Notes: generated by a model not told the origin, from the sequence alone. Positions 4,272 to 27,092 are shown, counted from the stretch's first letter. The stretch is 64,000 nt of DNA from an uncultured Candidatus Saccharibacteria bacterium (GCA_964351475.1 CAYGOB010000001.1:4459-68458), one strand, 5' to 3'. Translations and numbers: made by a program.

Positions 4272-4348
4272 ACAGGTCTATAAGGAACCAGAGGATAATG
4301 GCGGGATAAACACGCCTGGAATCTAAAGGGAGACAAATAAGACAGTAT
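4272..4348 (+). repeat. Interspersed promoter-bearing repeat, copy A.
   Basis: acaggtctataaggaaccagaggataatggcgggataaacacgcctggaatctaaagggagacaaataagacagtat. Lies 44 bp upstream of the tandem-repeat protein gene. Confidence 0.7.
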
Positions 4349-4391
4349 GGGAAAGTATGGAGATGTGTTATGTTTGTGATATAATACCCCT

Positions 4392-5439: not shown

Positions 5440-5515
5440 ACAGGTCTATAAGGAACCAGAGGATGTGGTGGGACATATACGTCTGGAACCTAAAACGAGA
5501 CAAATAAGACAGTAT
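5440..5515 (+). repeat. Interspersed promoter-bearing repeat, copy B (orphan: no downstream + strand gene).
   Basis: acaggtctataaggaaccagaggatgtggtgggacatatacgtctggaacctaaaacgagacaaataagacagtat, followed by aaaaaagggggag. Confidence 0.7.
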
Positions 5516-5658
5516 AAAAAAGGGGGAGATTCTTGTCTAAATAATTCTTGTTTTTTATTATACCTTTATACACAAACACAAAATTCAAAATGTTAACTTT
5601 TTCTTTGCGTTTGATTCCGTCTAAACGGTTGATTTTTGTTATAGAAATTTAAGATACT

Positions 5659-7623: not shown

Positions 7624-8363
7624 TGTTTAATCTTTCTTAGATTATTCATTACCTCTTTTGTATTTGTTTTTTCATACACCTTAATTATCTTCCCATCAAA
7701 CATACTAACAGTTCTCTTTGCGTATGATACGTACTCAAGATTGTGTGTAACCATAATCACAGTCTTTTTTTGCTTCTTGTTTAATTCTGTTAGTATATTC
7801 ATTAATTCTTCTCCAGATTGGTAATCTAAGTTACCTGTAGGCTCATCAGCAATAATTATCTCTGGATCGTTTACCAATGCTCTTGCAAGAGATACTTTCT
7901 GTTGTTGTCCACTTGATAGTTCTGAAGGTAGGTATTTGGACCAATCTGTCATTCCTAATTTGTCTATTTTTTCTCTAGCAATTTCCATACCTTTAGACCT
8001 TTCTTCTCCTAGTAGTAATAATGGAAAAAGTACATTTTCTTCTACAGGTATAGATTTGATCCAGTTGGTTTGTTGATATACCATACTAATATATTTTTTT
8101 CTTAATTTGTTTCTTTCTTCTTCTGTACTACCGTTGTAGAGGTGTTTACCTTTAAAAAAGATATTTCCTTTTGTTGGTTCTTCTAAGCCTAGTATTATGT
8201 GTAACAGAGTAGATTTACCACATCCTGATGGTCCGAATATTATAATAAAGTCACCATCTTGAATATCCAAAGATATGTCTTTTAATACAGGGATATCTTG
8301 GTCTCCAACGGTAAAGGATTTGTAGAGGTTTTTTATTTCAATTATTGAGTCAGTTTTCATCAT
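7620..8363 (-). CDS. ABC transporter ATP-binding protein (MacB/LolD-like).
   Basis: Walker [10 protein letters not shown]. Signature LSSGQQQKVSLARAL. Walker [13 protein letters not shown]-loop VTHN. Confidence 0.9.
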   Translation of the reverse strand: MMKTDSIIEIKNLYKSFTVGDQDIPVLKDISLDIQDGDFIIIFGPSGCGKSTLLHIILGLEEPTKGNIFFKGKHLYNGSTEEERNKLRKKYISMVYQQTNWIKSIPVEENVLFPLLLLGEERSKGMEIAREKIDKLGMTDWSKYLPSELSSGQQQKVSLARALVNDPEIIIADEPTGNLDYQSGEELMNILTELNKKQKKTVIMVTHNLEYVSYAKRTVSMFDGKIIKVYEKTNTKEVMNNLRKIKQ

Positions 8364-11400: not shown

Positions 11401-14400
11401 ATACCTAAACCTAGCTAACACCGACACCTACACCCTTACTGCATACGCATATACAGACGGTAGCCCAGTAACAACCGATGACATTAATCTGTACTTTGAC
11501 AATGACATACTCCCTACAACCTTTTTAGATGCAGGTAATGGTTGGTACAAACTAACAGCTACTCTAACAGCAACAGACTCTTACAAAGCCTTTGGAGTAC
11601 AAGTAAAAGCAAACAAAACAGTAAATGTAGACAATTTTAGTTTAGACAGAGGAGAGCGATATGTAATATATACATCCAATGCATACACAAATGAAACAAT
11701 GACAAGTTGGGATACCTTCTGTGAAGGAGATTTGGAATACCAAACCTGTACCCCTGACTCAACACAAGAAGGCTACTCAGAAATCAGATACCAACTCTGT
11801 ACAGACGATGGGTCAGTGTGTGAAAGTGAAAACAAATGGCAATACTGGAATGGTACAGAGTGGGTAGTAGCAACTGATTTGGACATACACAACAACAGTG
11901 CAAGTGATCTAACCCAACAAGTAATGCAAACAATAGATACGGAAAACAAAAAACTCTCTGTTAAAACAATACTAACCTTTGATGGATACAATCCTCCCAT
12001 ATTACCTAAGGTATCCATAGGACTGAGTGCAGATACAATACCACCAGAGACAAATGCAAGTAACCTAATCATGAAAACACAACCAGGAGGAAGAACCATA
12101 ACTAACGAAGGCTGGAACAATACTCTAATGCCATACATTACCTGGACCCAAGGAGCAGACAACAAAGGAGGCTCAGGCCTTAAAGGCTACTGTGTATACC
12201 TAGGCCAAGATCAAACTGCAGACCCTCAAACTAGTAAAGGAATACTAGGAGAATCTCCAGTAGACTTAGAAACCTCCACCTGTGGATTCATAGTAGAGGA
12301 TAATATACTAGATCTAAGTAATACAGACTACCATTCAGAACCATGGCTAACTAGTTCAACAGAACCCTACTACCTAAAAGTAAAAGCCATAGACAGAGGA
12401 AACAATGTGTACGAAGGAGAAAGTGAAACCTTTACATTCTACATAGATACAACACCTCCTACTAATGTATCCTTCCTTTCTTGTGCTTCAGGTAATTTCT
12501 CTAATGCTTTGGATATGAATTTCTCTTGGCCAACAACAGCAGGCCCAGAAGCAAAAGATGATTACTCAGACATACTAGGTTGGCAATACAAGCTTAATGA
12601 TATTAATGCACAGTGGAAAGGTACTCAAACACACACAGGATTAGAAATTGAATACATACCTCTTGGTCAATCAATATATACCCTTAAACAAAGTGATGCA
12701 GAAACAATCATATCAGGAAGTAATGTAGTTTACTTTAGAAGTGTAGACAATGTAGGTAACTTTTCATCAGGAGCAACCATTAGAACATGTAGCATATCCT
12801 ACGGAGGAGCAGCTCCTAACTTTGAAGATACAGACAAAGTAACAATTACTCCTAATATATCCCAAGACAACCAATACTCTTTAAGCTGGCCAAGTGCCAC
12901 CCCCGCTCCAGAAACCCAAGTATCTAAATACTACTACATGATAAATACAGCTCCTCCCTCAACACTTTCAACCTTAGAAGCAAACCCAGCAACATACATT
13001 AACAATTCAACATCAACAGCAGTACCTTTAAGAGCACTCCCTAATGTAAACAAAGGAGTAAATACAGTGTATGTAGTTTCTGTAGATAACAGTGAGATAC
13101 CTAACTACTCTCCAAGTAATTACATAACAGGAACATTTACTCTTAATTCAACAGACCCAGACAATGTAGGAGATTTAGTAGCATCAGACTCATCCATAAA
13201 GTTAAAATCTCAATGGAATGTAACCCTAACTTGGGTAGTACCAGAATACAAAGGAGCAGGTAATTTAACGTATGAGATATACAGGTCAACTAATGGAGTA
13301 GACTTTACACATGTGGGATCAACCTCAGGACTTTCATATGTAGATAGTGCACCTCAGTCACGTATGTATTTTTACAAGGTATATACTAAAGACGGAGCAA
13401 ATTCTTTAAGTTCAGGGAGCAATGCAGTATCCATAACACCAACAGGAAGATGGACAACGCCACCAGAACTCATATCCGAGCCTGAGGTAGAGAATGTAAC
13501 AACACAAAGAGCAACGATAGTGTGGTCTACATCTAGGTCAGCAGACAGTAGAATTCAGTTTGGAACACAGAGTGGTAAGTATGCAGATGTAGAACCTTCA
13601 ACACCTAATCATGTAACCTCTCATGTAATGTCTCTTTCAGGATTAACCCCTAATACAACATATTTTTACAGAGCAAAATGGACAGATGAGGATGGTAATG
13701 TAGGTATTTCAGAAGAAAAAACATTTACAACAGCACCACCACCGGTAATTAAACAAGTAGAAGTAAGAAATATTGGATTAGAGTCTGCAGTAGTTAACTT
13801 TACATCAGAGGGAGCTTCGGGAGTTAAGATATATTACGGAAGAACATCCTCTTTTGGGGGAATTAGAGAGATATCAACCTCTAGTTTAGAGTCTACCTAT
13901 TCAGTAGAACTCTCTGATTTAGAGGACGGTACTAGATATTACTTTAAGATTAATACTTTAGATGTGGATGGTAGTGAATACGACAACCAGGTTAACGAGT
14001 TCCAAACCTTACCTCGTCCTCGAGTAAGCAATGTAAGATTACAACAGGTATCAGGTACAGCACAAAGTACAATACTAGTAACATGGGATTCAAATACAGA
14101 GATATCATCCATAGTGACATACTGGCCAGAAAACAATCCATCTCAAGCAAGAGATGAGGTATCAGTAGAGTTAAAGAAAGGAGAACACAGAATGATGATT
14201 AGAGGATTAGAACCTACAACTGCATACAATCTCCAAGTAAAAGGAAGAGACAAGATGGGTAATGAGGCTGTATCAGATACCCAAAGATTTACAACAGCAA
14301 CAGATACAAGACCTCCAGTAATTACAGATTTAAGAGTAGAAGGTTCAACCATCCCTCCATTTGCAACAACAGCCCAACAGACCTCAGTACAGATAGTGGT

Positions 14401-14692
14401 ATCATGGACAACAGATGAGCCAGCTACAAGTCAGGTAGAGTTTGGAGAGGGTACAGGTAGTACGTATGCACAAAGAACACAGAAGGATTCTAATTTTAGT
14501 TACAATCATACAGTAGTAATATCTAACTTAGTACCATCTCAGGTATATCATCTTAGAGCAGTATCAGAGGATATGGCAGGTAATGTAGGGTATTCCATAG
14601 ATGTAGTAACAATAGCACCTAAGGTAACAGACAATGCCCTAGATTTAGTAATACAGAATTTAATGGAGACATTTAGATTTTTAAGAAGGTAG
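8444..14692 (+). CDS. Giant (2082 aa) signal-anchored surface protein. It has an N-terminal ConA/LamG-like region, two CBM-like jelly-roll modules, an Ig/Fn3-like central region and four C-terminal purple-acid-phosphatase-N-type Fn3 domains.
   Basis: N-terminal TM (LIGTLFLTIGLVVGTYLGLY). Two internal paralogous modules (KYKGTNSVKLQTGG...FGVRVKANRTVYIDEFSL and KYTGPSSAQLQTSD...FGVQVKANKTVNVDNFSL). Four repeats of the type ATIVWSTSRSADSRIQFG...YFYRAKWTDEDGN...TFTTA. The C-terminal ~1000 aa are collinear with ORF 21535-24630. Confidence 0.8.
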   Translation: MINALKEYFLKPRFHISRFEFNLIGTLFLTIGLVVGTYLGLYNVFKGLRAFNDTIHVWEYSEENISEYIYDDSIVGINDEGLYAPSNRLENGGFEEGLGGWSKKGEYILNDEFTTDRVAGEVDGTSAEPTGGTRTVIDSEDFISIGEGVLNVAGGTGTEGDPGLWYPLAITRIPGRMIVGTINLSTLGNTRFGFDLNTSGGINFGINFGSSSSLALYDGLSSVNVGSALSTDTNYQLAVILRSTGTYYYIKGGTFVNWTLLWISDNASNSTVYPTIVGRTGIFTADNIRIPTQTWLPTPLVHDTFTRVNGNVGSSEIVGPDGQETPQLQWSSGEIEDNRMVIRPELGEEVIVNGDMSSSEGWSVGSDWSIADGIASKVAGTTNQNISQGVLTSGLWYQAVWTLERSAGSFWAMFGTTALTYSHTTSGTFTETARANGGTAGIRGQSVAEGSVDNVSYKPLTLSSLFSTVSTSDADVIADVNITVTAGTQAGLVLNLDNTSSPANFIIVYTNGTQIRVDEVVNGVYTNKQTTSSTFTSGNLRVIKDGTKYRVYYNNVLVGTEQTITDESIINNTNHGLFSTYEGNSFDNFTIWPRTGFTDAPFEELTPSIDTEIKYKGTNSVKLQTGGVDANYLQTTNLGDTEIYTLTGYAYTDGSEVSSEDISLYYDNDILETRYIDMGEGWYKLEGEVIGEDSEKSFGVRVKANRTVYIDEFSLYRKINRIDNGMFINGLEGWNEQSPSDIEDLLTWIDFSDKDTLFINTGGTTPVNVDGDLIYRVADKSDGNDYWYAISAGVRPVYKENQLNGLSAAHFPAGNYLRTINSYGTYNKSIFTVARLLIDENKRNLYNRVSYNFWTRDGAIHLGRDSYISVPAVSDTNYIITALWDTGSNARLRLNRGIEEATGIAEGWASNYMWHLMSTAAEEGGEGYIYESIIYDRILSIEEYTAVESYLNNKWFLNSSLSTTTKYTGPSSAQLQTSDSDATFVQYLNLANTDTYTLTAYAYTDGSPVTTDDINLYFDNDILPTTFLDAGNGWYKLTATLTATDSYKAFGVQVKANKTVNVDNFSLDRGERYVIYTSNAYTNETMTSWDTFCEGDLEYQTCTPDSTQEGYSEIRYQLCTDDGSVCESENKWQYWNGTEWVVATDLDIHNNSASDLTQQVMQTIDTENKKLSVKTILTFDGYNPPILPKVSIGLSADTIPPETNASNLIMKTQPGGRTITNEGWNNTLMPYITWTQGADNKGGSGLKGYCVYLGQDQTADPQTSKGILGESPVDLETSTCGFIVEDNILDLSNTDYHSEPWLTSSTEPYYLKVKAIDRGNNVYEGESETFTFYIDTTPPTNVSFLSCASGNFSNALDMNFSWPTTAGPEAKDDYSDILGWQYKLNDINAQWKGTQTHTGLEIEYIPLGQSIYTLKQSDAETIISGSNVVYFRSVDNVGNFSSGATIRTCSISYGGAAPNFEDTDKVTITPNISQDNQYSLSWPSATPAPETQVSKYYYMINTAPPSTLSTLEANPATYINNSTSTAVPLRALPNVNKGVNTVYVVSVDNSEIPNYSPSNYITGTFTLNSTDPDNVGDLVASDSSIKLKSQWNVTLTWVVPEYKGAGNLTYEIYRSTNGVDFTHVGSTSGLSYVDSAPQSRMYFYKVYTKDGANSLSSGSNAVSITPTGRWTTPPELISEPEVENVTTQRATIVWSTSRSADSRIQFGTQSGKYADVEPSTPNHVTSHVMSLSGLTPNTTYFYRAKWTDEDGNVGISEEKTFTTAPPPVIKQVEVRNIGLESAVVNFTSEGASGVKIYYGRTSSFGGIREISTSSLESTYSVELSDLEDGTRYYFKINTLDVDGSEYDNQVNEFQTLPRPRVSNVRLQQVSGTAQSTILVTWDSNTEISSIVTYWPENNPSQARDEVSVELKKGEHRMMIRGLEPTTAYNLQVKGRDKMGNEAVSDTQRFTTATDTRPPVITDLRVEGSTIPPFATTAQQTSVQIVVSWTTDEPATSQVEFGEGTGSTYAQRTQKDSNFSYNHTVVISNLVPSQVYHLRAVSEDMAGNVGYSIDVVTIAPKVTDNALDLVIQNLMETFRFLRR

Positions 14693-14824: not shown

Positions 14825-14901
14825 ACAGGTCTATAATGAACCAGAGGTTATTGATGGGACATGCATGTCTGGAACCTAAAATGAGACAAAAGAGACAGTG
14901 T
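14825..14901 (+). repeat. Interspersed promoter-bearing repeat, copy C.
   Basis: acaggtctataatgaaccagaggttattgatgggacatgcatgtctggaacctaaaatgagacaaaagagacagtgt. Upstream of the NUDIX gene. Confidence 0.7.
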
Positions 14902-14948
14902 AAAAAAGGGGAAAAAAAGGTGTCCAACTTTTGATATAATGGACATAC

Positions 14949-16052: not shown

Positions 16053-16128
16053 TGGGTCTAAGAGGAACCTAAGGGATTTGGCGGGACATACACGTCTGGA
16101 ATCTAAAATGAGACAAAAGAGACAGTAT
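16053..16128 (+). repeat. Interspersed promoter-bearing repeat, copy E (left half degenerate).
   Basis: gggtctaagaggaacctaagggatttggcgggacatacacgtctggaatctaaaatgagacaaaagagacagtat. Confidence 0.65.
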
Positions 16129-16150
16129 CATAAATAGGGTAGTGTGATAT

Positions 16151-16450: not shown

Positions 16451-16512
16451 GTCAGTGGAACAACTCAATAATGGCGGGACATACACGTCTGGAATCTAAA
16501 GTAAGATAGTAT
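16451..16512 (+). repeat. Interspersed promoter-bearing repeat, copy F (left half degenerate).
   Basis: tggaacaactcaataatggcgggacatacacgtctggaatctaaagtaagatagtat. Lies 64 bp upstream of the sortase gene. Confidence 0.65.
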
Positions 16513-16575: not shown

Positions 16576-17172
16576 ATGAAAACCTTAAAACTTTTAAAAA
16601 AGTTAAACCTAATTTTCTCCATTATAATAGTTGTTATTGCTATTTATATTCTAATATATCCTCTTATACCAGAAATAGCTTTTAGAATGAGTGCTAATAA
16701 ATTCCAGGGATATGCATATCAATCTACAAAGACGATAGAAGTTTTACAAGAGGAAGCTAAAGAACTTCCTCCAATACCTGAAGATAATAGACTTGTTATT
16801 CCTAAAATCTATGTAAATGCTCCAATAGTAGATGGAGAAGATGAGTCAGTCTTAGATTTTGGTATGTGGCGTATTCCAAATACAAGTACTCCAGACAAAG
16901 GGGGCAATACAGTTATTGCTGGTCACAGAACTCTGTATACAAGTGGTCCAGATACCTTATACAATTTAGATAAGATTGAAATAAATGATTTACTATTGGT
17001 ATATTGGCAAGGTAAGGAATATGTATATAAGGTTTATGATATTACAGAGGTGAGTTCGGAGAGTATGGAAATTTTAGATAATACAATAGATTCAAGAATT
17101 ACTTTATTTAGTTGTACACCAAAATGGACATCAGAACAAAGATTGGTAGTAAAAGCCACTCTTCAACAATAA
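16576..17172 (+). CDS. Sortase-family transpeptidase.
   Basis: N-terminal TM. Catalytic His in VIAGHRTLY. TLxTC-type Cys motif ITLFSCTP. Conserved Arg near the C-terminus (EQRLVVKA). Confidence 0.8.
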   Translation: MKTLKLLKKLNLIFSIIIVVIAIYILIYPLIPEIAFRMSANKFQGYAYQSTKTIEVLQEEAKELPPIPEDNRLVIPKIYVNAPIVDGEDESVLDFGMWRIPNTSTPDKGGNTVIAGHRTLYTSGPDTLYNLDKIEINDLLLVYWQGKEYVYKVYDITEVSSESMEILDNTIDSRITLFSCTPKWTSEQRLVVKATLQQ

Positions 17173-17265: not shown

Positions 17266-18231
17266 TTATCTCTCTTTGGAAGTTCTTGACGAGAACATAG
17301 TTTCTCTTCGAGATAATACCAACAGAAGGGTAGAGATACCTGCAAGTACTAATATTACTATATTCCATGTAATTCCTTTTGTACTTAAAGTAGTACCATT
17401 TGTACCTGGTAATTTAGCGGTAGTATCTGTGCTTGTGTCTGTGGTTGTGGTCGTGGTTGCAGAGGCTACACATATCTCACTAGTAATAGTATCTGAATCT
17501 AATGTAACCGCAGCATTTCTAGCTAATAATCTTCCATAAACTGTTACGTCGGTGGTAGCAGAGATTGATGTTAATGCCATTATGGTTCCTACAAACGTTG
17601 AGCCTGTACCAAGTGTTGCAGAACTTGTAACTTGCCAGAAAACATAACATGATTGAGCACCATTTATAAGTCGGACTTCACTGCCAGAAGCAGTTACTAA
17701 ATCTGAAGAAGCTTGAAAAATGAAAACTGCATTTGGATCTCCCTGAGCATCAAGTATTAATGGGCTCTCAGCTGTTATATTTGCGGTTGTAGCATTTCCA
17801 AAAGCATAAACACCTGAAGTTAAGGTTTGTCCACCAAGTTGGTTATCTACATCAGTAAATGTTTGAGTTGGTGTTCTACCAGCAGCATCAAGATAGGCGG
17901 TTGTAAGATCGTTTTTAGCTTGAGTTAACAAATCAGGATTATTTACTGATCCTGCAGGTCCGGATGCATCTACAGAATAAATAGTTCCAGTTACTTCCTC
18001 AGCTGTTAGACCAGCATAATTACTACCAGAGGCAGGACTTAAACCAACATCTCCTGTAATAATAGAAGTTGGAATATTCGTAATTTCTGTACCAGCTAAA
18101 ACTGCAAAACTTTCAGCAGTACCAAGATTTACTGTTGTTAGTGCAGTTTGAGCATTTACAAGTTGAATTCCAATTATAGCAATAACAAAAGATACAAGCA
18201 TTGTTATTGAAATCTTACTAAATGTTCTCAT
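17266..18231 (-). CDS. Ice-binding-like (DUF3494) surface protein with a Thr-rich stalk and a C-terminal cell-wall sorting signal.
   Basis: Signal peptide. DUF3494 signature AESFAVLAGTEITNIPTSIITGDVGLSPASG. Linker ATTTTTTDTSTDTT. Then KLPGTNG motif, hydrophobic helix ITWNIVILVLAGISTLLLVL and positively charged tail SRRETMFSSRTSKER. Convergent with the sortase gene. Confidence 0.75.
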   Translation of the reverse strand: MRTFSKISITMLVSFVIAIIGIQLVNAQTALTTVNLGTAESFAVLAGTEITNIPTSIITGDVGLSPASGSNYAGLTAEEVTGTIYSVDASGPAGSVNNPDLLTQAKNDLTTAYLDAAGRTPTQTFTDVDNQLGGQTLTSGVYAFGNATTANITAESPLILDAQGDPNAVFIFQASSDLVTASGSEVRLINGAQSCYVFWQVTSSATLGTGSTFVGTIMALTSISATTDVTVYGRLLARNAAVTLDSDTITSEICVASATTTTTTDTSTDTTAKLPGTNGTTLSTKGITWNIVILVLAGISTLLLVLSRRETMFSSRTSKER

Positions 18232-18336
18232 TGAAAAGCCCCACTAAACTTATTAATTACAACATAATTGTAATCTTTTATATTTTAAGGGTTTTAAGGA
18301 GAAATGTCAATTTTTGAAGGTTTTCTACTAATGATT

Positions 18337-18391
18337 GATATTGGCGGGACATACACGTCTGGAACCTAGAATGAGACAAATAAGACAGTAT
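18337..18391 (+). repeat. Interspersed promoter-bearing repeat, copy G (right half plus a short left stub).
   Basis: gatattggcgggacatacacgtctggaacctagaatgagacaaataagacagtat, followed by aaaaaggggaggg. Upstream of the DGR target gene. Confidence 0.7.
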
Positions 18392-18514
18392 AAAAAGGGG
18401 AGGGTATATGTCTCAAATTTGTTTTTTGAACCTTTTGTGAATAAGTTGGGATGCAAGTATGCAACCGACACATCTTCTTGCAAAATATTTTTATTTCTTG
18501 TAAATTATACTAGG

Positions 18515-19393
18515 ATGCAAAAAACAAACAAGAATAAAGAGATGACCAAGTTAGAAACAGTACTAATTATTTTGATAGCCATAGCAACTATTGGATCATT
18601 TCTGGCAGGAAGGGCAGTAGCAGAACAACATGAGGGTACTCCTAAAGCAGATTCAACCTCAATAATAAAACAACTATCCGATGACCTTACAGCACTAGGA
18701 TACGGTTCAACTGAACCAGGTAGTTGGGGCAATGCTGGTGAAATGTGGAATAGGATATATTCAGCAGGAGTATGGGTACCATCTTTAGCAGATGCTCAGG
18801 ACTCAGATGTAGTATCTGGAAAACAATTCTATTCAGGCTCTGACCGCACATTGAGAACAGGCTCTTTTCAAACTATAGATTGGGAGAAACAATCTCTACT
18901 TCAAATGGATAACAGGGATAGTACAGACTATGGAGAGACAAGTAGTTGGGACAAGACTAATAATAGCCCAGAGGTTTGGTATGATGAGGTAACAGGTTTG
19001 TATTGGAGTGCAAGTCAGGGTAGTATGGCAAATGATTTTGTAAGGTCTACCTGTGATTTTTACACTACAGTCCCAAGAGGAGATTATAATGGGGGGGATG
19101 AGAGTTGTGATGCCGCAATAAATCATTGTGCAACATTGAGCCTAGCTACACATACAAATGCTTCAGCAAAGACAGATTGGTATTTACCATCTCAGATAGA
19201 GTTAATGCAGGCATACATAAATGGAATATACAAGAAGACCAGTACTGGTTGGGTTACTACAAGCCAATTTTGGTCTAGTACCGAGTTTCAGAGTTATCCT
19301 ACTATTGCATGGGGCACTTACCTAGGTAATGGACAGACGAGCCCTCATACTAAGACCACGAGCCTCGCTGTTAGGTGTGTTCTCCGGGATTAA
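18515..19393 (+). CDS. DGR target (variable) protein: signal-anchored, with a C-terminal DUF1566 (Lcl-C / C-type-lectin-like) domain carrying the variable region.
   Basis: DUF1566 signature DWYLPSQIELMQAY...FWSSTE...AWGTYLGNG...TSLAVRCVLRD. The track ORF starts at 18335 inside repeat copy G, so the start is more likely the M at 18515 (MQKTNKNKEMTKLETVLIILIAIATIGSFLAG). The last 123 nt are homologous to the TR. Confidence 0.8.
   Translation: MQKTNKNKEMTKLETVLIILIAIATIGSFLAGRAVAEQHEGTPKADSTSIIKQLSDDLTALGYGSTEPGSWGNAGEMWNRIYSAGVWVPSLADAQDSDVVSGKQFYSGSDRTLRTGSFQTIDWEKQSLLQMDNRDSTDYGETSSWDKTNNSPEVWYDEVTGLYWSASQGSMANDFVRSTCDFYTTVPRGDYNGGDESCDAAINHCATLSLATHTNASAKTDWYLPSQIELMQAYINGIYKKTSTGWVTTSQFWSSTEFQSYPTIAWGTYLGNGQTSPHTKTTSLAVRCVLRD
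19267..19389 (+). other. DGR variable region (VR) at the 3' end of the target gene.
   Basis: 123-bp homology to 19721-19843. About 19 of 20 mismatches fall at positions that are A in the TR. The last 41 bp (19349-19389) are identical to the TR. Confidence 0.85.
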
Positions 19394-19483
19394 ATACTAT
19401 AGGGCGTTTGGTTGTGGGTATTTTAAATATTTCCCCTTTTTCTTTTTGTAATACCTATTTTAAAATCAAAACAACGCCCGATT

Positions 19484-19505
19484 TACAGTGTATTTATACA
19501 CTGTA
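19484..19505 (+). terminator. Perfect 9-bp palindrome hairpin downstream of the VR (tacagtgta-ttta-tacactgta) followed by an AT-rich tract.
   Basis: Seen directly. Weak intrinsic terminator for the target gene, or the DGR VR-proximal structural element. Confidence 0.35.
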
Positions 19506-19720
19506 ATTTAAAATTTAAAAAATTCCTTGCAACATACTAATTAATATGCAACAATTATCATAAGCAAGATCTTACAATCTCAACTCCAAAGATGAGCAAT
19601 GGGTTGTGAGGGAGGCATAATATTTAATCCTACTTGCTGTACCTATTAGGTAATGTTATACAAAGAATCTTCTGTTTAATACATCAGGTTCTTGGTGGAT
19701 TTAAAAATTAGCAAGTTTAG

Positions 19721-19843
19721 ATTTTGGTCTAGTACCGAGAATCAGAATAATACAACTAATGCATGGAACACTAACCTAAATAATGGAAATACGAACAATA
19801 ATACTAAGACCACGAGCCTCGCTGTTAGGTGTGTTCTCCGGGA
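19721..19843 (+). repeat. DGR template repeat (TR).
   Basis: Homologous to the VR. The TR is dense in AAT/AAC codons and reads FWSSTENQNNTTNAWNTNLNNGNTNNNTKTTSLAVRCVLRE in the VR frame. Track ORF 19692-19892 is this TR, not a gene. Confidence 0.85.
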
Positions 19844-19852
19844 GAAGATATT

Positions 19853-20215
19853 ATGCCTCAGGCAAATAATACAGACAAACCCTTATATTTAGCTGTGTAC
19901 AAGCTCATTATCTATCTGTATAGTATAGTTCACAATCTTCCAAAAGAACATAAGTATAGATTAGGAAATGACATCATAGACATTAGTTGGAAGACCCTAG
20001 ATTCCATAATGTACACAAATACATTAGGAAACGAAGATAAACATATCCAGATAAAGAAAACCTTAGCAATATTTAATACCTTAAAATATAGGTTAAGGGT
20101 TTTAAGTGATTTAAAACTCTTAAGTCATAGGCAATATGCACACATAATTAAACAAACGGTAGAAATAAATAAAATGCTAAGGGGTTGGTACAATTGGTCT
20201 AAAAAACTTGTATGA
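19853..20215 (+). CDS. avd: Avd-like accessory variability determinant (small four-helix-bundle protein).
   Basis: About 121 aa, basic and helical (YKLIIYLYSIVHNLPKEHKYRLGNDI...LKLLSHRQYAHIIKQTVEINKMLRGW). Sits immediately 3' of the TR, the position typical of DGR avd. Start chosen at the M after a GGGAGAAG SD-like stretch. Confidence 0.55.
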   Translation: MPQANNTDKPLYLAVYKLIIYLYSIVHNLPKEHKYRLGNDIIDISWKTLDSIMYTNTLGNEDKHIQIKKTLAIFNTLKYRLRVLSDLKLLSHRQYAHIIKQTVEINKMLRGWYNWSKKLV

Positions 20216-21382
20216 GTCTTGAGGTTCTAAATAGGACTTCAGTATCCCAAAATGCTTTTCATATATATTCTTCCTTAAACGATACGAGTTACTCCATCTT
20301 AGGTGTCCAAAAGTAGAGTTAATACTTGTACAGATAGATTCAAGATCTTCTTTAGAAGGAGGTAATTTAATCTGGACAGCCTCTTCAATACAAAAACGTC
20401 TGTTTATGAGAAAACCGTTATTAAAGTAATGTAATTTTTTCTTCAGATTTCCAACTGTCCTGTTTCTGGATAGTATATATTCTGGTCTAATAACATATCC
20501 TACAAAATCAATCCCCTGATACACGCTACCATAGGTGGTTTTTTCTTTCTTTGTATTTAGTTTTAATTTTTCTAAAAGAAAATTCTCTGTTAGTTTCTCT
20601 GCTTTTTGTAATTCTTTTATGTTATTACTAATCAAAAGCATGTCATCGGCGTATCTTAAATAGTATTTGATTTTTAATTGACGCTTAATGAATTGATCTA
20701 CTTCATTTAGATACAAATTAGCAAAAAACTGTGAAGTCAAGTTCCCTATAGCTAAACCTTTCTTTTTGGGTATAGTAAAGAGGCTTTTACCTTTGGGTAG
20801 AAGCTGTAAGAGTGTTTTGTCTCCCTGTAATTCGAAGTCTTGGCAGGGGTTGTGATAAATGATCTTCATAGAAAGCCACGTTAGGTCGTCAATATCTTTT
20901 GTTGGCATAGGAAGTTTTGAGAGATCCTTCAAAAGTATTTGAGCAAGTATATCTTTATCTATGGAGTAGAAGAAACTTCTAATATCCATTTTAAGGTAAT
21001 ATGCTTTAGAGGTATTATTATGTGTGATCTTATTAAGAAAACTAGATGTTCGTTGAACACCTAGTAAGCCACCTTTATTTTTTCTACAAGCAAGAGAGTC
21101 AAAGATAAATTTTTTATCTATTTCATCTTGAATGTACATGATTAGTAAGTGATGAATAATTCTGTCGTTAAAGTAGGCGGCAAATATTTCACGAATGGTA
21201 GGGTAAGATATTACAAAGCATGAGGAGGTCCCTATTTCATAACTTTTTTCTCTGAGAGCAGTTGATAGGATGTGGAGGGTGTCTTCATAATCTAATTCAC
21301 AATAGAGTGCATGATTACTATTTCTTTTGCCTTTTCTACAAGAATAATATGCTCTAAGTAAGGATGAGAGATTAAAAATCAT
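20177..21382 (-). CDS. DGR reverse transcriptase.
   Basis: RT motifs: LAIGNLTSQFFANLYLNEVD (the DGR-specific I/LGxxxSQ motif 4, in place of the group II intron QGxxxSP) and YLRYADDMLLI (YADD catalytic box). 401 aa. Adjacent to the TR/avd. Confidence 0.9.
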   Translation of the reverse strand: MIFNLSSLLRAYYSCRKGKRNSNHALYCELDYEDTLHILSTALREKSYEIGTSSCFVISYPTIREIFAAYFNDRIIHHLLIMYIQDEIDKKFIFDSLACRKNKGGLLGVQRTSSFLNKITHNNTSKAYYLKMDIRSFFYSIDKDILAQILLKDLSKLPMPTKDIDDLTWLSMKIIYHNPCQDFELQGDKTLLQLLPKGKSLFTIPKKKGLAIGNLTSQFFANLYLNEVDQFIKRQLKIKYYLRYADDMLLISNNIKELQKAEKLTENFLLEKLKLNTKKEKTTYGSVYQGIDFVGYVIRPEYILSRNRTVGNLKKKLHYFNNGFLINRRFCIEEAVQIKLPPSKEDLESICTSINSTFGHLRWSNSYRLRKNIYEKHFGILKSYLEPQDSYKFFRPIVPTP

Positions 21383-21534
21383 CTCTGATATTATATCATT
21401 AGGTCCTTGGGATTAACACAAAACTAATTTTCTTCTATTTGCCGTACTCTATTTTTAAAAAGACTCAATGTGTTAAACTCTATATAGTCTGTATTCTTGT
21501 CTTTTAAGCGATCTAATGCTAAACTTTTTCTAAC

Positions 21535-24500
21535 ATGAAAAAACCTGTCCGGATAAATATAAAAATACCAGCATTAACGTTACTCCTCTTCGCTATTATA
21601 GGTATATCAATATTCTTCCTCTCCAGAGTATATGCTACCAACCAAACTCCAATTAAAGGAAGTGCTACTGTACTAAATACCTCTAATGAAATATTCTTTA
21701 CCTCTAGTGTATATGGAGCTAACGTAGTAATATCGGATCCAGACCCCGAAGATGAAAACAAACGTACAATCTCTGGATATGCATGGTCTCAAGATATTGG
21801 GTGGATAAAGTTTACTGCAGGAGAATCCCCTGGGGTATTTGTAGATTATGCAACAGGACAAGTAAGTGGTTCTGCCCATGTAATGAACACAGGTAATGAA
21901 ATTAAATTTGATTCTAACAACAGTAATACAATTGTTAATACAAATACTGGAGTATTTAGTGGATATGTTTGGTCTGAGGATGTAGGGTGGATAGATTTGG
22001 GAACAGACCAAGTATATGTCCAAGACACACTACCTCCTCACAACCCAGATGAAATATCAATATATTCAGATGGAAGTAGAACAAAAGAGATTGTGATTTT
22101 GGAAGGAAATGTTTACAACTACAGTAATCCCCATATAGAGTGGGAAGAACCCATAGATCCCAGCACAGAATCTCACGGTTATCAGTCTAGTGGCATATCA
22201 GGATACTACGTATATTGGGGGCCAAGTAATACAGCTATACCCACAAGCTCAGGTACTTTTCAAACAGATAATTACATAGATGTAGAAGTAACCCAAAGTG
22301 GTATGCACTACTTAAACATTCAAGCAGTAGACAATCACGGAAATATACATACCAATCCTGAACATGAATATACTGTTTTAGAGTACAAAGCAGACATTAT
22401 TCCCCCAACCAATGTTAAATACATAACTACACCAAGTGGAAATTTTGGAAATGTTAATGACATGTTCTTTAGTTGGCCAAGTGCTCCAGGAGTAGCAAGC
22501 AGTGATGAAAATGGAATACTCGGATGGCAGTACAGTCTTAACGATGTCAGCAGTTGGACAGGAACCCACGAAAGTGAAAGATTTGACCTTGAGTACATAC
22601 CATTTGAAGATACTACCTACTCCCACTACTTTACAGAAGAAAAAGACCTGGGAAATATGGTAGTAGGTAACAACATCATATATTTTAGAACCATAGACAA
22701 TGCAGGCAATTTTAGTGGGTATATATCTGGAGGAATCTCATACGGAGGTTTGGCTCCTACCTTTGGAGAAGAACACAATGTGACTGTAACTCCCAACACC
22801 AACACCTCTAACGAATTCTCTCTCTCATGGCCCTCTGCCACACCAGAGGAGGGAAGAACCATAGTCTCATATTACTATATGATAAATAGAACACCTCCTA
22901 GCACATACAATACTTTAGTAGACAACCCCTCTCTTTATGTCCCTGTTACAACAACATCTGTATCTACAAGGATGTTAAACGGAGCCGTAAAAGGAAGCAA
23001 CACAGTATATGTCGTAGCTGTAGATGACTTAGATGGATACTCTCCAAGCAACTTTATTACTGGCACATTTACCCTTAACAGCACTCTCCCAGACCCTGTA
23101 ATTAACCTAAGTATAGCAGACACCTCAATACGTGAAGCCAAACTATGGAGAGCAAGTTTAACTTGGGAGGCTCCTGCTTACAAAGGAGATGGTAACCTCT
23201 CCTACGTTATACAAAGAAGCCTAAATGGTAGTACATGGGCTACGGTAGGTTCAACAACAGGAACGTCATTTTCTGACATTGTCCCAGAAAGTAGAACATA
23301 CTATTACAGAATAGGGGTCTCTGATGGTTCTGACCAAAGCATAGCAAATCCAACCCCCTCAACCACAGTATCCTCCTTTATTCAAGGAAGATACACAGAA
23401 GCACCAGAGTTACTCTCTGGAATCATAGTATCTAATGTCGGAACAAGAAAAGCTACAATATCGTGGGTAACAAGTAGAGAAAGTGATACTAAAATTGCAT
23501 TCGGACTAAGTAGTAATGACTACTTTGAAGAAGAAGTATACAGTTCAAAACAGGTAACAGAGCATGAAATAACGCTACATAATCTCCAACCTGAAACGAC
23601 ATACTACTTCAAAGCCAGATGGACAGACCAAGACGGCAATACAGGAGAAAGCAAAGAAGTCTCCTTTAGAACAACTGACTCTCCCCAAGTTTACTCTTCA
23701 AATGTAGATATGGTTGGGCTAGATTATGCCATAATATCCTTTGAGGTCTTTGGTGCTAGCAAAGCAGCCGTAGTATATGGAAGGTCTCTAGCATATACAG
23801 CAATTGAAGAGATAAACACCTCTCCTGCAAGAAGCAAATACTCTGTAGTTTTGGAAGACCTAGACGATGGGGTTGAATACAATTTCAAAATTAGGTTAAC
23901 AGATGCAGATGGATATATCTATGACTCCATAGAAAACAACGTCTTTAGAACACCTCCTAGACCACAGATATCGAATGTACGAGTACAAGAATTAAGAGAG
24001 GTAGCAAGTCCCACAGTCGTATTTAGTTGGGAAACAAATACACATACTAACTCAATAGTTAGATTTAGAGAAGATTTTGAAGGTGCAAGAGAAAGAGACC
24101 AAGTAAGTATGGAAAAAATAAAGGGAGAGCATGAGATGACATTAACAGGACTGGATTCAGAAACCCCATATATTGCCTATGTAGAAGGAGTAGATGACTA
24201 TGGTAACAAAGCAGTATCCGAGGGCGTGAGATTTACTACCGATGTAGATACCAGGCCGCCTAAAATATTGAATGTGAAAATTGAGCAGGACTTACAAGGT
24301 CGCTCTGTACAAACTGACAGAAGCAGAAGTGCCCAATTCATTATTAGTTGGGAAACGGATGAACCAGCAACAAGCAAGATAAATTATGGAGAAGGAGGGG
24401 GAGGAGCATATACCTCTAGTTCAAGATTAGACCAAGAGTACAGAATGAAACATCTTGTCATAGTATCTGGTCTAACACCTTCAAAAGTATATAGTTTAGA

Positions 24501-24630
24501 AATTGAATCCACCGATCCATCAGGAAACACAGGCAGATACGGTCCACTAGTATCCATAACTCCAAAATCTGCTAATACTGTTTTAGAAACAATACTCAAT
24601 ACTATGTCAAATATGTTTAATATATTCTAA
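21535..24630 (+). CDS. Large (1031 aa) secreted Fn3/PAP-N-repeat surface protein, paralogous to the C-terminal half of ORF 8444-14692.
   Basis: Signal anchor (ALTLLLFAIIGISIFFL). Collinear similarity to 8444-14692, for example IPPTNVKYITTPSGNFGNVNDMFFSWPS...GWQYSLND...YFRTIDNAGNFS...SYYYMINRTPPSTY...TGTFTLNST, and four ATISWVTSRESDTKIAFG-type domains. Its stop overlaps the start of the downstream ABC gene. Confidence 0.8.
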   Translation: MKKPVRINIKIPALTLLLFAIIGISIFFLSRVYATNQTPIKGSATVLNTSNEIFFTSSVYGANVVISDPDPEDENKRTISGYAWSQDIGWIKFTAGESPGVFVDYATGQVSGSAHVMNTGNEIKFDSNNSNTIVNTNTGVFSGYVWSEDVGWIDLGTDQVYVQDTLPPHNPDEISIYSDGSRTKEIVILEGNVYNYSNPHIEWEEPIDPSTESHGYQSSGISGYYVYWGPSNTAIPTSSGTFQTDNYIDVEVTQSGMHYLNIQAVDNHGNIHTNPEHEYTVLEYKADIIPPTNVKYITTPSGNFGNVNDMFFSWPSAPGVASSDENGILGWQYSLNDVSSWTGTHESERFDLEYIPFEDTTYSHYFTEEKDLGNMVVGNNIIYFRTIDNAGNFSGYISGGISYGGLAPTFGEEHNVTVTPNTNTSNEFSLSWPSATPEEGRTIVSYYYMINRTPPSTYNTLVDNPSLYVPVTTTSVSTRMLNGAVKGSNTVYVVAVDDLDGYSPSNFITGTFTLNSTLPDPVINLSIADTSIREAKLWRASLTWEAPAYKGDGNLSYVIQRSLNGSTWATVGSTTGTSFSDIVPESRTYYYRIGVSDGSDQSIANPTPSTTVSSFIQGRYTEAPELLSGIIVSNVGTRKATISWVTSRESDTKIAFGLSSNDYFEEEVYSSKQVTEHEITLHNLQPETTYYFKARWTDQDGNTGESKEVSFRTTDSPQVYSSNVDMVGLDYAIISFEVFGASKAAVVYGRSLAYTAIEEINTSPARSKYSVVLEDLDDGVEYNFKIRLTDADGYIYDSIENNVFRTPPRPQISNVRVQELREVASPTVVFSWETNTHTNSIVRFREDFEGARERDQVSMEKIKGEHEMTLTGLDSETPYIAYVEGVDDYGNKAVSEGVRFTTDVDTRPPKILNVKIEQDLQGRSVQTDRSRSAQFIISWETDEPATSKINYGEGGGGAYTSSSRLDQEYRMKHLVIVSGLTPSKVYSLEIESTDPSGNTGRYGPLVSITPKSANTVLETILNTMSNMFNIF

Positions 24631-26777
24631 TGCCAAAAAAGAAACTAATAAGTGTTAAAAATATAAATAAGAGCTTTCTCCTAGGTAAAAGAAGAAACAA
24701 TGTTCTTAAAGATATAAATCTAGATATCTATTCTGGTCAACTAACAAATATCTTTGGACCATCAGGATGTGGTAAATCTACACTTCTAAACGTCATCATG
24801 GGTATAGAGAAGCCAGATACAGGCATTGTAAAGATACATGACGAAGATCTATGGAAGAAAAACACCGACGAACAAGCAGACATAAGAAAAAGAGAAATTG
24901 GAATAGTATATCAACAACAAAACTGGGTAAGGTCATTGACAGTCATAGAAAACGTTGCTCTTTCTGCACAGCTCTTAGGGTTTGGTAAGGCAGAATCCTT
25001 ACAAAGGGCACAAGAGGTATTAAAAGAAGTGGGAATGTTTAAATTTAGAAACTTCTACACCTCAGAACTCTCCTCAGGAGAACAACAAAGGGTTGGTTTA
25101 GCAAGAGCCCTCATAGCCGACCCAGAAATTATCCTAGCAGATGAGCCAACAGGGAACCTGGATACAGAAAATGGGGATGAGGTTGTTAAAATATTGAAGA
25201 GTTTAGCTAAAAAAGGCAAAGCTGTAGTTTTAGTAAGTCACAATCCCGAATATTTGGACACTTCTGACACTATAGTAATTATGAAAGATGGCTATATCAT
25301 TGACTCTCTCAAACAACAAGAGGGAATTGTAAAAAAAGTTAGAACTATTTTAGCCCAAACAGAATTAAACAACGAAGAGAAAATCTTTGAAAATGCTAGG
25401 AGCAAACCAAACATATCTCAACCATACTATCCCACAGAAACCCTATTTGAGAAAATCAAAGTATATTCTAGGTTAATTTACAGCTTCTTTTACAAATCTT
25501 TGCTACTTTTTGTAATATCTGCTCTTACAATTTTCAATCCTACTAAAGCAGAAGAATTTAGAAAGAAAGCAACTGTTACAGGGGAGAATAATATCCCTAT
25601 CCTAGATCTAACAGAGCTCTCTTTTAAAAACCTTTTCTTTAAAAAATTCAGAACGGTAGTAACAATATTGGGAGTAGGATTAGGTACGGGTTTTGTAGTT
25701 TTACTTCTCTCACTGGGTTACGGTATGGAGAGGTTAGTTATTGATCAGATAACAGCGGCAGAAGACTTAAGTCAGGTTGATGTTTTTCCTAAAGTTGGAA
25801 GCCAATTAGAACTAACCGATGCACTTATTGAGAAGATTGCAGGTATATCTGGAATAGATACAATATATAGAATAAAAAACTTCCCAGGGAGGATAGATTA
25901 CAAAGGCTCTACAGTAGATGTAGTAGTGTATGGAGTAGAGTTTGAATATTTAGAAAATTCTCCTGTTAGAAAAGTGGCAGGTGAATTCTTAGAAGAAGAG
26001 TCAGACAAATACTCTGCAATTGTTAACAAAGAATATGTTGATTTACTAGGGTTGTTGGGGGATGACGTAGTAGGAGAGAGATTAGATTTAAGTGTCATTC
26101 AGTCCATGCCACAGGAAGACAGTGAGCCTCAAAACATTCTAGCCCAGGTATTAGGTGTTGTTGAAGATGATTCTCCTCCTGTCGTATATCTTAAAATGGG
26201 CTCAGTTAGGGACTATACCACTGATGAGTATTCTGAATTGACAATAGTTGTTAACAGAGATGTTTCCTTGGAGGTAGTTAGAAAGCAGATAGAGTCTTTA
26301 GGGTTAGAGACTTTTTCTGTAATGGATACAATAGAGCAAGTACAAAACATTTTCACCTATGTAAGATATGGGTTGTTAGGTTTTGGGGTATTGGCTTTTG
26401 CCATAGCATTTTTAGGTATGATAAATACATTGGTTGTTTCATTACTTGAAAGAACTAGAGAGGTTGGGTTATTAAAAATTATTGGTATGAAGAGAAATGA
26501 TATTAGGTTTTTGTTCATAATTGAGTCTATGTTTATTGGACTTTTGGGGGGTATAACAGGTGTTATTCTGGGTGTTCTTGGTGGATATTTAGTATCTATA
26601 CTGATATATCTTTTCTCAATGTCAAGAGGTGTAGAGTTTATGATAATTTCATCTTTCCCCCTCCTTATGATGATACTTGTTGTTTTTTGTACAACGATGT
26701 TAGGTTTCTTTACAGGTCTTTACCCAGCAAATAGGGCTGTTAAGATACCTCCTCTTGATGCAATTAGGTATGAGTAA
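24630..26777 (+). CDS. MacB-type ABC exporter, fused ATPase plus FtsX-permease.
   Basis: N-terminal Walker [10 protein letters not shown], signature [15 protein letters not shown], Walker [13 protein letters not shown]-terminal FtsX signature [31 protein letters not shown]. Translationally coupled to the upstream gene (TAATG). Confidence 0.85.
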
Positions 26778-26988
26778 AGAGTTTATGAACGGATTAGATT
26801 GTTTTAAACTATACCTGTACGATAGAAAGAACTTTTAGTTAGGGTACATAAGGCTTTCACCTTCGAACCGAGAGCTCTTAAAAACATCTCTTTTTTGACT
26901 ATTTTCATCCACCAGACCTTATTTTTGAGAACATCTCTTTTTTAGCATTAAATAACTCAATCCCCATAAGGGTTTTAAAACATAGTGT

Positions 26989-27015
26989 ACAGGTCTATAA
27001 GGAACCAGAGGATAT
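26989..27015 (+). repeat. Left-half-only copy (H) of the interspersed repeat, directly abutting the 3' end of tRNA-Asp.
   Basis: acaggtctataaggaaccagaggatat, then tggcgg, which is the reverse complement of the tRNA CCGCCA 3' end. Confidence 0.6.
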
Positions 27016-27092
27016 TGGCGGAATGGACGGGACTCGAACCCGCAGCCTTCGCAGTGACAGTGCGATGCTCTAACCAATTGAGCTACCACTCC
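27016..27092 (-). tRNA. tRNA-Asp (anticodon GTC).
   Basis: The reverse complement folds as GGAGTGG / TAGCTCAATTGGTTAGAGC / TCGCA-CTGTCAC-TGCGA / AGGCT / GCGGG-TTCGAGT-CCCGT / CCATTCC-G-CCA. CCA is encoded. Confidence 0.85.

Follow-up and report, generated by a model that had tools for sequence, protein, structure and literature searches.

A diversity-generating retroelement of a Patescibacteria bacterium, with a convergent reverse transcriptase gene and a covarying RNA leader upstream of its template repeat

The described diversity-generating retroelements (DGRs) closest to the one reported here, which lies in a 64,000-nucleotide stretch of DNA from an uncultured Candidatus Saccharibacteria bacterium (GCA_964351475.1, CAYGOB010000001.1:4459-68458; analysed at its full length and referred to below as the window, with positions counted from its first letter), are those of Bordetella phage BPP-1, of Legionella pneumophila, and of the candidate phyla radiation (CPR) and DPANN lineages. 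In the BPP-1 element (mtd-avd-TR-Sp-brt; PDB 8ub7 series) the RNA carries, from 5′ to 3′, the partner of a stop strand (within avd), the template repeat (TR), and then the spacer (Sp) RNA, with an Avd-binding stem-loop (Sp3-33), a primer strand (Sp47-56, pairing with TR117-129), 2 nt, the stop strand (Sp59-70, pairing just upstream of TR), a short stem-loop, unpaired As, a single-stranded 'thumb ring', and a long stem-loop that binds bRT, the phage reverse transcriptase (RT) (Handa et al., bioRxiv 10.1101/2023.10.23.563531). The Legionella element diversifies the lipoprotein LdtA, of the CLec2/DUF1566 class ('category d'), and its core, avd-TR-RT, is encoded on a single strand (architecture B; Wu et al. 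2018, PMC5758913). The CPR/DPANN elements (Paul et al. 2017, as cited in PMC5758913) form a 'CPR set' that is mostly of architecture B3, TR-(avd)-RT; the TR is mostly ahead of avd in CPR DGRs, and TR and RT may lie on different strands (Wu et al., PMC5758913).

Several likenesses and differences emerge when the window is compared with these systems. First, as in BPP-1, the RT has an I-G-x-L-T-S-Q motif and a YxDD box, the Avd protein is basic, the TR-to-VR difference is adenine-specific, the variable repeat (VR) is at the extreme 3′ end of the gene for a protein with a C-type-lectin fold and has an invariant GC-richer 3′ segment, and two adjacent RNA duplexes flank the TR, at its 3′ end and immediately before its start, the duplexes being followed by a short hairpin, then a single-stranded stretch and a long stem-loop; in the window these RNA features are predicted. 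Unlike BPP-1, however, the window element is cellular rather than phage-borne, its RT is no more than 41% identical to phage RTs, its parts run target-leader-TR-avd and the RT is encoded on the other strand, its structured RNA is 5′ of the TR (a permuted connectivity), and the candidate priming nucleotide is U or G and not A. Secondly, as with LdtA, the variable region overlaps the DUF1566/Lcl_C motif of a surface-exposed, membrane-tethered protein with a diversified C-terminus, and the modelled fold matches the C-terminal domain of Legionella Lcl, although the window protein has an N-terminal transmembrane helix in place of a lipid anchor, and the RT is inverted. Thirdly, the element shares its host lineage and the position of the TR before avd with the CPR set, but in the subclade to which it belongs (RT identity of at least 55%) the TR and avd are on one strand with the RT converging. 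The element type, a CPR DGR with a DUF1566 target, is already well known and an opposite-strand RT is a documented variation; a covarying leader 5′ of the TR, which pairs with both TR ends, is the sole feature beyond the descriptions that we found.

We are highly confident that the window DGR is a genuine, chromosomal and currently active element of a CPR (Patescibacteria) bacterium, and its sequence indicates that it rewrites the tip of a membrane-anchored, lectin-like surface protein. All of its parts (the target gene with its VR, the TR, avd and RT) fall between positions 18515 and 21382. An initial annotation of this DNA had proposed a complete DGR with a DUF1566/C-type-lectin-like target, TR, Avd and DGR-type RT, and every sequence feature that it described is present, with corrections to four of them (the target start, the repeat, avd and the RT strand) that are given below. 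The Bordetella-phage-type architecture, with TR and RT on one strand and a structured spacer RNA 3′ of the TR, is absent from this locus; DGR membership is unaffected by this, because Wu et al. (PMC5758913) allow TR and RT on different strands.

The VR (19267-19389, plus strand) forms the 3′ end of the target gene, with a hypervariable core at 19286-19347 (residues 258-278), and the TR (19721-19843, plus strand) is located downstream of it. Both are 123 nt long, are in exact register when compared base by base, and are separated by 331 nt, in agreement with the earlier description of the last 123 nt of the target as copied about 330 bp downstream. In a repeat search the pair is recovered as a 134-nt direct repeat (19267-19400 and 19721-19854, 84% identical) that is the longest in the 17-23 kb region, and the flanks of the VR and TR diverge from 19390 and 19844 onwards, respectively. 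Adenines make up 45 of the 123 TR positions (37%), and 17 of the 18 VR/TR mismatches are at TR adenines, the other being at a TR thymine (19790 T vs 19336 G); the adenine bias thus persists upon realignment. Chance is excluded as the source of the repeat, because it is the longest in the region and the adenine bias recurs in every relative examined. When read in the frame of the target the TR encodes FWSSTENQNNTTNAWNTNLNNGNTNNNTKTTSLAVRCVLR, with 12 AAY (Asn) codons in the variable core, and the view of it as an Asn-codon-rich template outside any real gene is borne out, the 66-aa open reading frame (ORF) across it being a mechanical one. Randomisation of the TR adenines gives about 5e17 possible peptides and creates zero stop codons, and the VR stops 1 nt short of completing the last sense codon of the target. 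The final 41 nt (19349-19389) are the same in VR and TR, are unmutated in five alleles, and have a GC content of 56% compared to the 35% background; by its sequence, this invariant segment resembles an initiation of mutagenic homing (IMH) site. No second VR was found in the 64-kb window in searches of both strands, by segments and with the TR adenines wild-carded, which recovered the known pair only.

Evidence for activity comes from the comparison of consensus assemblies, with alleles gathered by exact-protein look-ups (L-numbers denote the contigs or loci compared). The window itself is ENA ERZ27247823 contig k141_612511 (L001 is 100% identical), and a contig from a sister sample (L003) differs from the window at 25 of 11,719 aligned bases, 24 of which are inside the VR at 19286-19347 and one at 28982. 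Five VR DNA alleles, from loci with both repeats, have 18, 16, 21, 13 and 14 mismatches to their cognate TRs; 78 of these 82 are at TR adenines. Variation in one or more alleles touches 31 of the 45 adenines, none of them outside positions 20-83 of the TR. All strains share one A-rich TR core sequence. At the non-A TR positions 94, 98 and 99 the strains fall into two groups; there the cognate VR mirrors its own TR with one exception (L009), and this copying of non-A variants into the cognate VR therefore reflects TR-to-VR information flow. At the protein level there are seven VR peptide alleles (from the 90% cluster and its nearest neighbour), which vary only at target residues 258, 260-262, 264, 267, 269, 271, 272, 274, 276-278 and 284. 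The VR polymorphism at TR adenines that the initial annotation had suggested looking for is seen here as between-population differences, and the VRs of relatives are equally adenine-biased (13/13 to 27/28).

Two observations count against this interpretation: activity is deduced from differences between assemblies and not from variation inside one sample, and four of the 82 mismatches fall where the TR has a base other than adenine (two T>G, one G>T and one C>A, in the window at 19336/19790 and in the L005 and L009 VRs), these being compatible with low-level non-A errors or with ordinary mutation. We have also considered a decayed or domesticated DGR that is no longer diversifying, with the VR differences arising from ordinary divergence, strain recombination or assembly chimeras, to which the comparison of consensus assemblies alone and the sharing of the window's VR allele by the L001 and L002 samples lend some weight. 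This explanation is very improbable, however, given that 24 of 25 differences over 11.7 kb between two assemblies are confined to 62 nt of the VR, that the mismatches so strongly favour TR adenines in the window alleles and in relatives alike, and that the RT, avd and TR are intact, with an identical RT protein on 23 independently assembled contigs (ENA, JGI and Logan). As far as the assemblies indicate, the element is active.

The target gene (18515-19393, plus strand) codes for a protein of 292 aa, anchored in the membrane near its N-terminus and ending in an Lcl_C/DUF1566 domain, or for a 283-aa form from an alternative ATG at 18542; gene calls on identical contigs begin at one or the other of these codons. 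The 352-aa ORF given initially, starting from a TTG at 18335, is a mechanical one, and its start is not credible on sequence grounds because the beginning of the ORF (its first 60 nt, 18337-18396) is a copy of a dispersed intergenic repeat, described below. The account of the product as a signal-anchored protein ending in a DUF1566/C-type-lectin-like domain stands: Pfam Lcl_C/DUF1566 matches the C-terminal part (residues 215-349 of the long ORF) with E 1.7e-12, which passes the curated threshold, and in an AlphaFold model (74 homologues, mean pLDDT 88.4) a single hydrophobic helix, spanning residues 12-35 of the 292-aa form, is joined by a disordered linker to a compact ectodomain. In the fold comparison that had been proposed as a check, using Foldseek against the PDB, the top match is the Legionella Lcl C-terminal domain (8q4e, E 2e-4), followed by dozens of C-type lectin-like domains including snake-venom lectins, LOX-1 and langerin, with target-normalised TM-scores of about 0.4-0.58; the model thus supports a C-type lectin (CLec) fold for the C-terminal domain with moderate strength.

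Inverted repeats follow the VR at 19402-19506 (plus strand), with a long imperfect hairpin (GGGCGTT at 19402-19408 and AACGCCC at 19473-19479) and then a hairpin at 19483-19506 leading into an A/T-rich run. The RNA fold of 19385-19725 has a z score of -4.88, the repeats at 19402-19479 and 19483-19506 are AT-rich, and relatives also show post-VR inverted repeats, as judged by eye. These are probably the terminator of the target gene, and possibly a counterpart of the DGR target-site hairpin; a post-VR hairpin/cruciform feature occurs in only 34% of DGRs (Wu et al., PMC5758913).

The avd gene (19853-20215, plus strand) encodes a basic protein (isoelectric point 9.8), and both the identity and the basic character proposed for it are retained, although its length is 120 aa from the ATG at 19853 and not 121 aa; the six-frame list gives 120/128 aa for the plus-strand ORF with its end at 20215. 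The product matches Pfam bAvd (3.9e-15, above the cut-off) and the PHROG 'Avd protein of DGR' (2.4e-19); a less favourable point is that its match to the NCBIfam equivalog DivGenRetAVD (E 1.7e-17, 63.6 bits) is below the cut-off of 80. The RT gene (20177-21382, minus strand), initially listed as following avd, is real and encodes 401 aa as stated, but it is convergent with avd and so does not simply follow it. The 3′ ends of the two genes overlap by 39 nt (20177-20215), which could couple both transcripts by antisense or termination. Convergent overlap or abutment of avd and RT is also seen in relatives with the same gene arrangement (arrangement A, below), for example 27 nt in L025-L027.

Motif 4 of DGR RTs, [I/L]GxxxSQ, replaces the QGxxxSP of group II introns, and in the window RT the IGNLTSQ and YADD motifs noted initially are found at residues 212 and 244, respectively. 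The protein matches Pfam RVT_1 and PHROG 1423 (phage RT) at 7.5e-91. Its best match among solved structures is 8ub7, a 328-aa 'Reverse transcriptase' that we take to be the Bordetella phage bRT, at E 4.5e-25, whereas group II intron RTs match at 5e-7 or worse; the alignment with 8ub7 covers residues 6-150 and 208-320, and sets IGNLTSQFFANLY against IGSLTSQLFANVY. There are 99 matching phage records, five of them from Bordetella phages, and the RT genes of Pseudomonas, Burkholderia and Shewanella phages share up to 41% identity over 76-77% of the RT length. A viral origin was considered and rejected, given these low identities and a search of viral contigs that returned no relative.

Could this RT belong instead to another retroelement or defence system, such as a group II intron, a retron or a DRT/UG system, that merely adjoins a duplicated gene end? 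NCBIfam and PADLOC do give weak matches to group II, retron and DRT RTs, as they would with any RT, but the NCBIfam scores are far under their cut-offs (group_II_RT_mat 75.5 vs 300 bits, retron St85 60 vs 235, Drt3a 57 vs 200), so that no such model comes near its threshold, and the PADLOC matches are generic RT ones of at most 99 bits. Rfam detects no group II intron or retron RNA in the window, nor at E ≤ 10 in 19380-20260. With 8ub7 and PHROG 1423 as the best matches of the RT, an adjacent Avd, and an arrangement with a TR/VR pair that is kept across relatives, we regard this explanation as exceedingly improbable; by its motifs and closest matches the RT belongs with the DGR-type enzymes. 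An RT of another clade, a VR lacking variation, and mismatches lacking adenine bias had been set in advance as grounds for rejecting the DGR assignment, and none of the three was found.

The organisation of related elements was surveyed with a small DGR-finder, using self-BLAST for adenine-biased repeats and tblastn for RT and Avd, applied to 30 related loci from genomes and metagenomes. Three arrangements were found, and these track RT identity. In arrangement A (RT identity 55-63%; the window, L011, L025-29 and L044) the target with its VR, the TR and avd are on one strand and the RT is convergent; in arrangement B (48-52%; L034-37) the RT and then avd are on one strand, with the TR and VR on the other; and in arrangement C (43% or less; L013, L015 and L040-43) a single strand carries VR-TR-avd-RT, in that order, and L039 represents yet another variant. 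The RT is opposite the TR in every relative with at least 48% RT identity whose TR was locatable by VR/TR pairing or by the RNA model described below, and the inverted RT of the window is therefore not an assembly artefact; its gene order is a variant within the known range. We note that some relatives have additional repeats: L013 contains two separate adenine-biased TR/VR pairs (4299-4413 with 4779-4893, and 1238-1374 with 1603-1739; 21/21 and 20/20 mismatches at A), L035 has a single TR (6035-6162) with two VRs (7845-7984 and 10357-10484), and L012 has two VR-like copies (2719-2858 and 3334-3473) whose mutual mismatches are not adenine-biased, with a TR placed by the RNA model at about 4905-5025.

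In all of these arrangements the last ~160 nt of the VR-TR spacer are kept, and the remaining spacer is not. In the window this segment is a structured RNA leader (19563-19720, plus strand) directly 5′ of the TR, with covariation, in which the following plus-strand elements are predicted: a stem-loop domain (19571-19610), a strand designated J (19611-19631) that pairs with the 3′ end of the TR, the 5′ strand of a closing helix (19632-19639, paired with 19709-19716), a short hairpin (19640-19652) and a long stem-loop (19662-19695). RNAalifold predicts 35 pairs from eight leader sequences, 20 of them with compensatory changes. A covariance model built from these eight gives exactly one match per DGR locus within the clade, each immediately next to the TR and on its strand, including loci outside the training set (L012 at 2.8e-30, L033 at 1.7e-16, L035 at 2e-8, L031 at 3e-5, L013 at 3.5e-5, L038 at 7e-5, L041-43 at 0.011 and L037 at 0.018). 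In an alignment of 16 distinct rows, 94.1% of cells are paired, compared with 72.0% in column shuffles (0/500 as high) and 37-52% with slid partners, and 31 of the 35 pairs show double changes; the alignment was fitted to the model, which favours the structure and somewhat inflates the pair counts. From these sequence comparisons we conclude that the leader is a conserved, covarying RNA in every relative examined. It has no Rfam match at E ≤ 10 (19380-20260), and neither Rfam nor the open-access literature searched, beyond which lies the subscription literature, describes a structured RNA 5′ of the TR. An alternative helix or switch through the leader's 5′-most GCAAGA, which resembles the 3′ strand of the closing helix, was tried and rejected (65.6% of cells paired vs 61.7% when shuffled; 48/500 as high).

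A putative promoter for the DGR RNA is located at 19527-19555 (plus strand), with TTGCAA, a 17-nt spacer and AACAAT, and a predicted start near 19562. In at least 9 of 15 loci a -35-like TTGNNA hexamer precedes the start of the covariance model by 35-37 nt, and a -10-like hexamer (AACAAT, AATTAT, TAAAAT or TAATTT) is 17 nt past it, which suggests that transcription of the leader starts near 19562; on the other side, the putative promoter is weak and is missed by a generic promoter scan.

The pairing of strand J with the TR 3′ edge is shared by the clade. The fold of 19555-19860 pairs GAGGCAUAAUAU of the leader with AUAUUAUGCCUC directly after the TR, and the J partner (19840-19859, plus strand) consists of the last 4 nt of the TR (GGGA) and AGAUAUUAUGCCUC just 3′ of it, taking in the Shine-Dalgarno-like GGGAG of avd and its AUG at 19853. 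RNAduplex predicts J duplexes of -13 to -25 kcal/mol at 16 loci (-25.4 in the window, z -7.6), always covering the last 4-5 nt of the TR and the next ~15 nt, and the sequences vary widely among loci: the leader strand GAGGCAUAAUAUUU is opposite AGAUAUUAUGCCUC in the window, GGCACAGA opposite UCUGUGCU in L011, GAAGCCCAAACA opposite UGUUUGGGCUU in L034, GGAGGCUCGA opposite UCGAGCUUUC in L035, and AGGUGCUUAUUU opposite AAAUAAGCACC in L031. The mean energy of cognate duplexes is -20.2 kcal/mol, compared to -11.95 (standard deviation 3.45) for non-cognate ones; the cognate partner ranks first in 10 of 12 loci, and none of 200,000 permutations of the J partners reaches the observed sum.

From 5′ to 3′ the window RNA would comprise the stem-loop domain, J, 0 nt, the closing strand, the short hairpin, a single strand, the long stem-loop, a single strand, the closing-strand partner, the TR and the J partner, and if the 3′ end of the phage RNA is joined to its 5′ end and the circle is cut between TR and Sp, exactly this order results. 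By this analogy, the 5′ leader rather more probably than not does the work of the Bordetella phage Sp RNA, with the order of the elements circularly permuted. J would then pair with the TR 3′ end in the manner of a template:primer duplex, and the closing strand adjoining it would pair with 8 nt located 4 nt upstream of the TR, like the cPRT Stop duplex. On this model the leader would prime cDNA synthesis in cis, from near U19631, with C19839 as the approximate first template position and the closing helix as the point of arrest. Priming also has the right polarity: U19631, the last nucleotide of J, pairs with G19840 and adjoins C19839, the template base to be copied next. For this clade of CPR DGRs we lean, by a narrower measure, towards a circularly permuted RNA for RT-Avd recruitment, priming and stopping, with the hairpin elements (Avd-side stem-loop, short hairpin and long stem-loop), the primer and stop strands and the single strand all 5′ of the TR under their own promoter, and no more than a ~16-nt partner 3′ of it.

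The regions 3′ of the TR bear on this. A 140-nt spacer RNA cannot fit there in the window, because avd begins 10 nt after the TR, and no long RNA 3′ of the TR can be common to the clade, because arrangement B has antisense avd at that position; the leader is kept whether avd follows the TR in sense (arrangements A and C) or in antisense (B). Three features speak against the permuted-RNA interpretation: J terminates at its 3′ end in U or G, where the Bordetella phage primes from A, the J duplex is mostly 3′ of the TR with 4 bp inside it, and in arrangement A the duplex also covers the ribosome-binding site and AUG of avd, so that it may in part serve translational control. The 5′ element might, accordingly, be a mere leader or regulator of the TR-avd transcript, acting in its stability, in termination, or in avd translation through sequestering of the Shine-Dalgarno and AUG, with the RT-Avd-binding priming RNA elsewhere, such as inside avd 3′ of the TR, on the pattern of the Bordetella phage, or in trans. 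Such a role would account for the position of the J duplex over the avd start in the window and most arrangement-A relatives and for the lack of an adenosine at the J 3′ end, and it would agree with a published survey in which 207 of 278 DGRs, CPR ones among them, were predicted to have Avd-binding stem-loops immediately after the TR. We nonetheless consider it unlikely, at perhaps one chance among several, since the leader and its J:partner pairing are kept in arrangement B (L034, L035, L031 and L037), where avd occupies the opposite strand and the sequence 3′ of the TR is untranslated, since the sequences 3′ of the TR are non-homologous between arrangements and leave no common downstream RNA, and since the leader matches the order of Sp element by element (stem-loop, TR-3′-pairing strand, TR-upstream-pairing strand, short hairpin, single strand and long stem-loop). 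RT-Avd binding and priming are candidate functions of the leader, which we infer from this analogy.

The diversification cycle can be outlined as follows. A dedicated transcript would run from near 19562 through the ~160-nt leader and the 123-nt TR into avd, and the RT, expressed separately from the opposite strand, would with Avd reverse-transcribe the TR and misincorporate opposite adenines, as expected by homology with the Bordetella phage system. The cDNA would then replace the VR at the 3′ end of the target, an outcome evident in the VR alleles, and recode about 13 positions (within residues 258-278) of the membrane-anchored, C-type-lectin-like Lcl_C protein. Going by what is established for DGRs, the role of the element is likely to be the rapid variation of a ligand-binding site at the cell surface, for example in host-cell attachment.

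The host is assigned to the CPR/Patescibacteria from the relatives that its RT and target have. Among species-representative genomes, the most similar RTs are encoded by metagenome-assembled genomes of Saccharibacteria (62% identity), Dojkabacteria (59%), Paceibacterota (42%) and Moranbacteria (40%), and the target has 128 homologues, of which all the named ones are from CPR bacteria (Dojkabacteria/WS6, Woesebacteria and 'Patescibacteria group'). The GC content is 35% and flat (range 32-40%), and there are no phage or mobility genes among the neighbours of the cassette; because of both, the accessory island in which the initial annotation had placed it is not shown, although the proximity of giant surface proteins is correct and a surface-protein neighbourhood is a fair description. 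The neighbours include genes for a sortase, an Ice_binding-like protein, NUDIX, RNase T, MacB-type ABC transporters, tRNA-Asp, TsaD/TsaE and enolase, and five tRNAs are the only Rfam matches across the window. Two giant repeat proteins with fn3/Pur_ac_phosph_N-like repeats (21535-24630, 1031 aa; 8444-14692, 2082 aa) each adjoin a MacB-type ABC transporter, one fused (24630-26777) and one split (5758-8363), and in strains L004-L006 a 915-aa gene and an 83-aa ORF are in place of the 1031-aa gene. The Ice_binding-like protein (17266-18231, minus strand; E 1.8e-61) carries an LPGTN motif together with a hydrophobic stretch and a basic tail at the C-terminus, which we read by eye as a sorting signal, and adjoins the sortase gene (16576-17172, plus strand); directly upstream of the DGR target, the two are a probable sortase-substrate pair, judging by these sequences. 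A 408-aa ORF at 72-1298 was considered as the equivalent of the 408-aa radical-SAM gene flanking the L004 cassette, but is unrelated to it and arylsulfotransferase-like.

A dispersed intergenic repeat of ~90 nt (consensus ACAGGTCTATAAGGAACCAGAGGATATTGGCGGGACATACACGTCTGGAACCTAAAATGAGACAAATAAGACAGTATAAAAAAGGGG) is present on the plus strand at 4272-4365, 5440-5532, 14826-14920, 16054-16146, 16468-16506 and 18320-18410, and its 16-nt core has 6 copies compared with 0.1 expected. The left part of the repeat corresponds to the flank and last bases of tRNA-Asp (27016-27092, minus strand), beside which a related flank is located at 26938-27021. Its predicted structure is weak, with zero compensatory pairs. 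Two copies bound a segment containing the DGR cassette, the 1031-aa gene and the ABC transporter (18337-27021), and synteny between strains breaks exactly at repeat copies, with other genes after the right-hand copy in L004-L006 and another flank at the left-hand copy in L009; the repeat could thus be a recombination or cassette-boundary element. There is no integrase among the genes neighbouring the cassette or the repeat copies. An integrated island with an att site in tRNA-Asp, to which the 30-nt similarity of 18337-18366 to the tRNA-Asp 3′ end might point, was rejected, as this similarity belongs to the six-copy dispersed repeat and no integrase is nearby.

The window DGR is one more well-documented, naturally active example from the CPR, where such elements are already known to be common, and its near-identical assemblies that differ almost only in the VR are unusually clean evidence of activity to come from sequences alone. 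The covarying RNA marks the TR in this clade whatever the gene order, and could improve DGR annotation where the RT and TR strands differ. If the RNA is indeed permuted, this would free the RT gene, and in some members avd too, to sit on either strand, and in the arrangement of the window, template folding and avd translation would be mutually exclusive on any one RNA molecule. The DGR ribonucleoprotein would then depend on the topology of its RNA and not on linear order, which would bear on the generality of the Bordetella phage mechanism and on the design of compact templates for engineered DGR mutagenesis.

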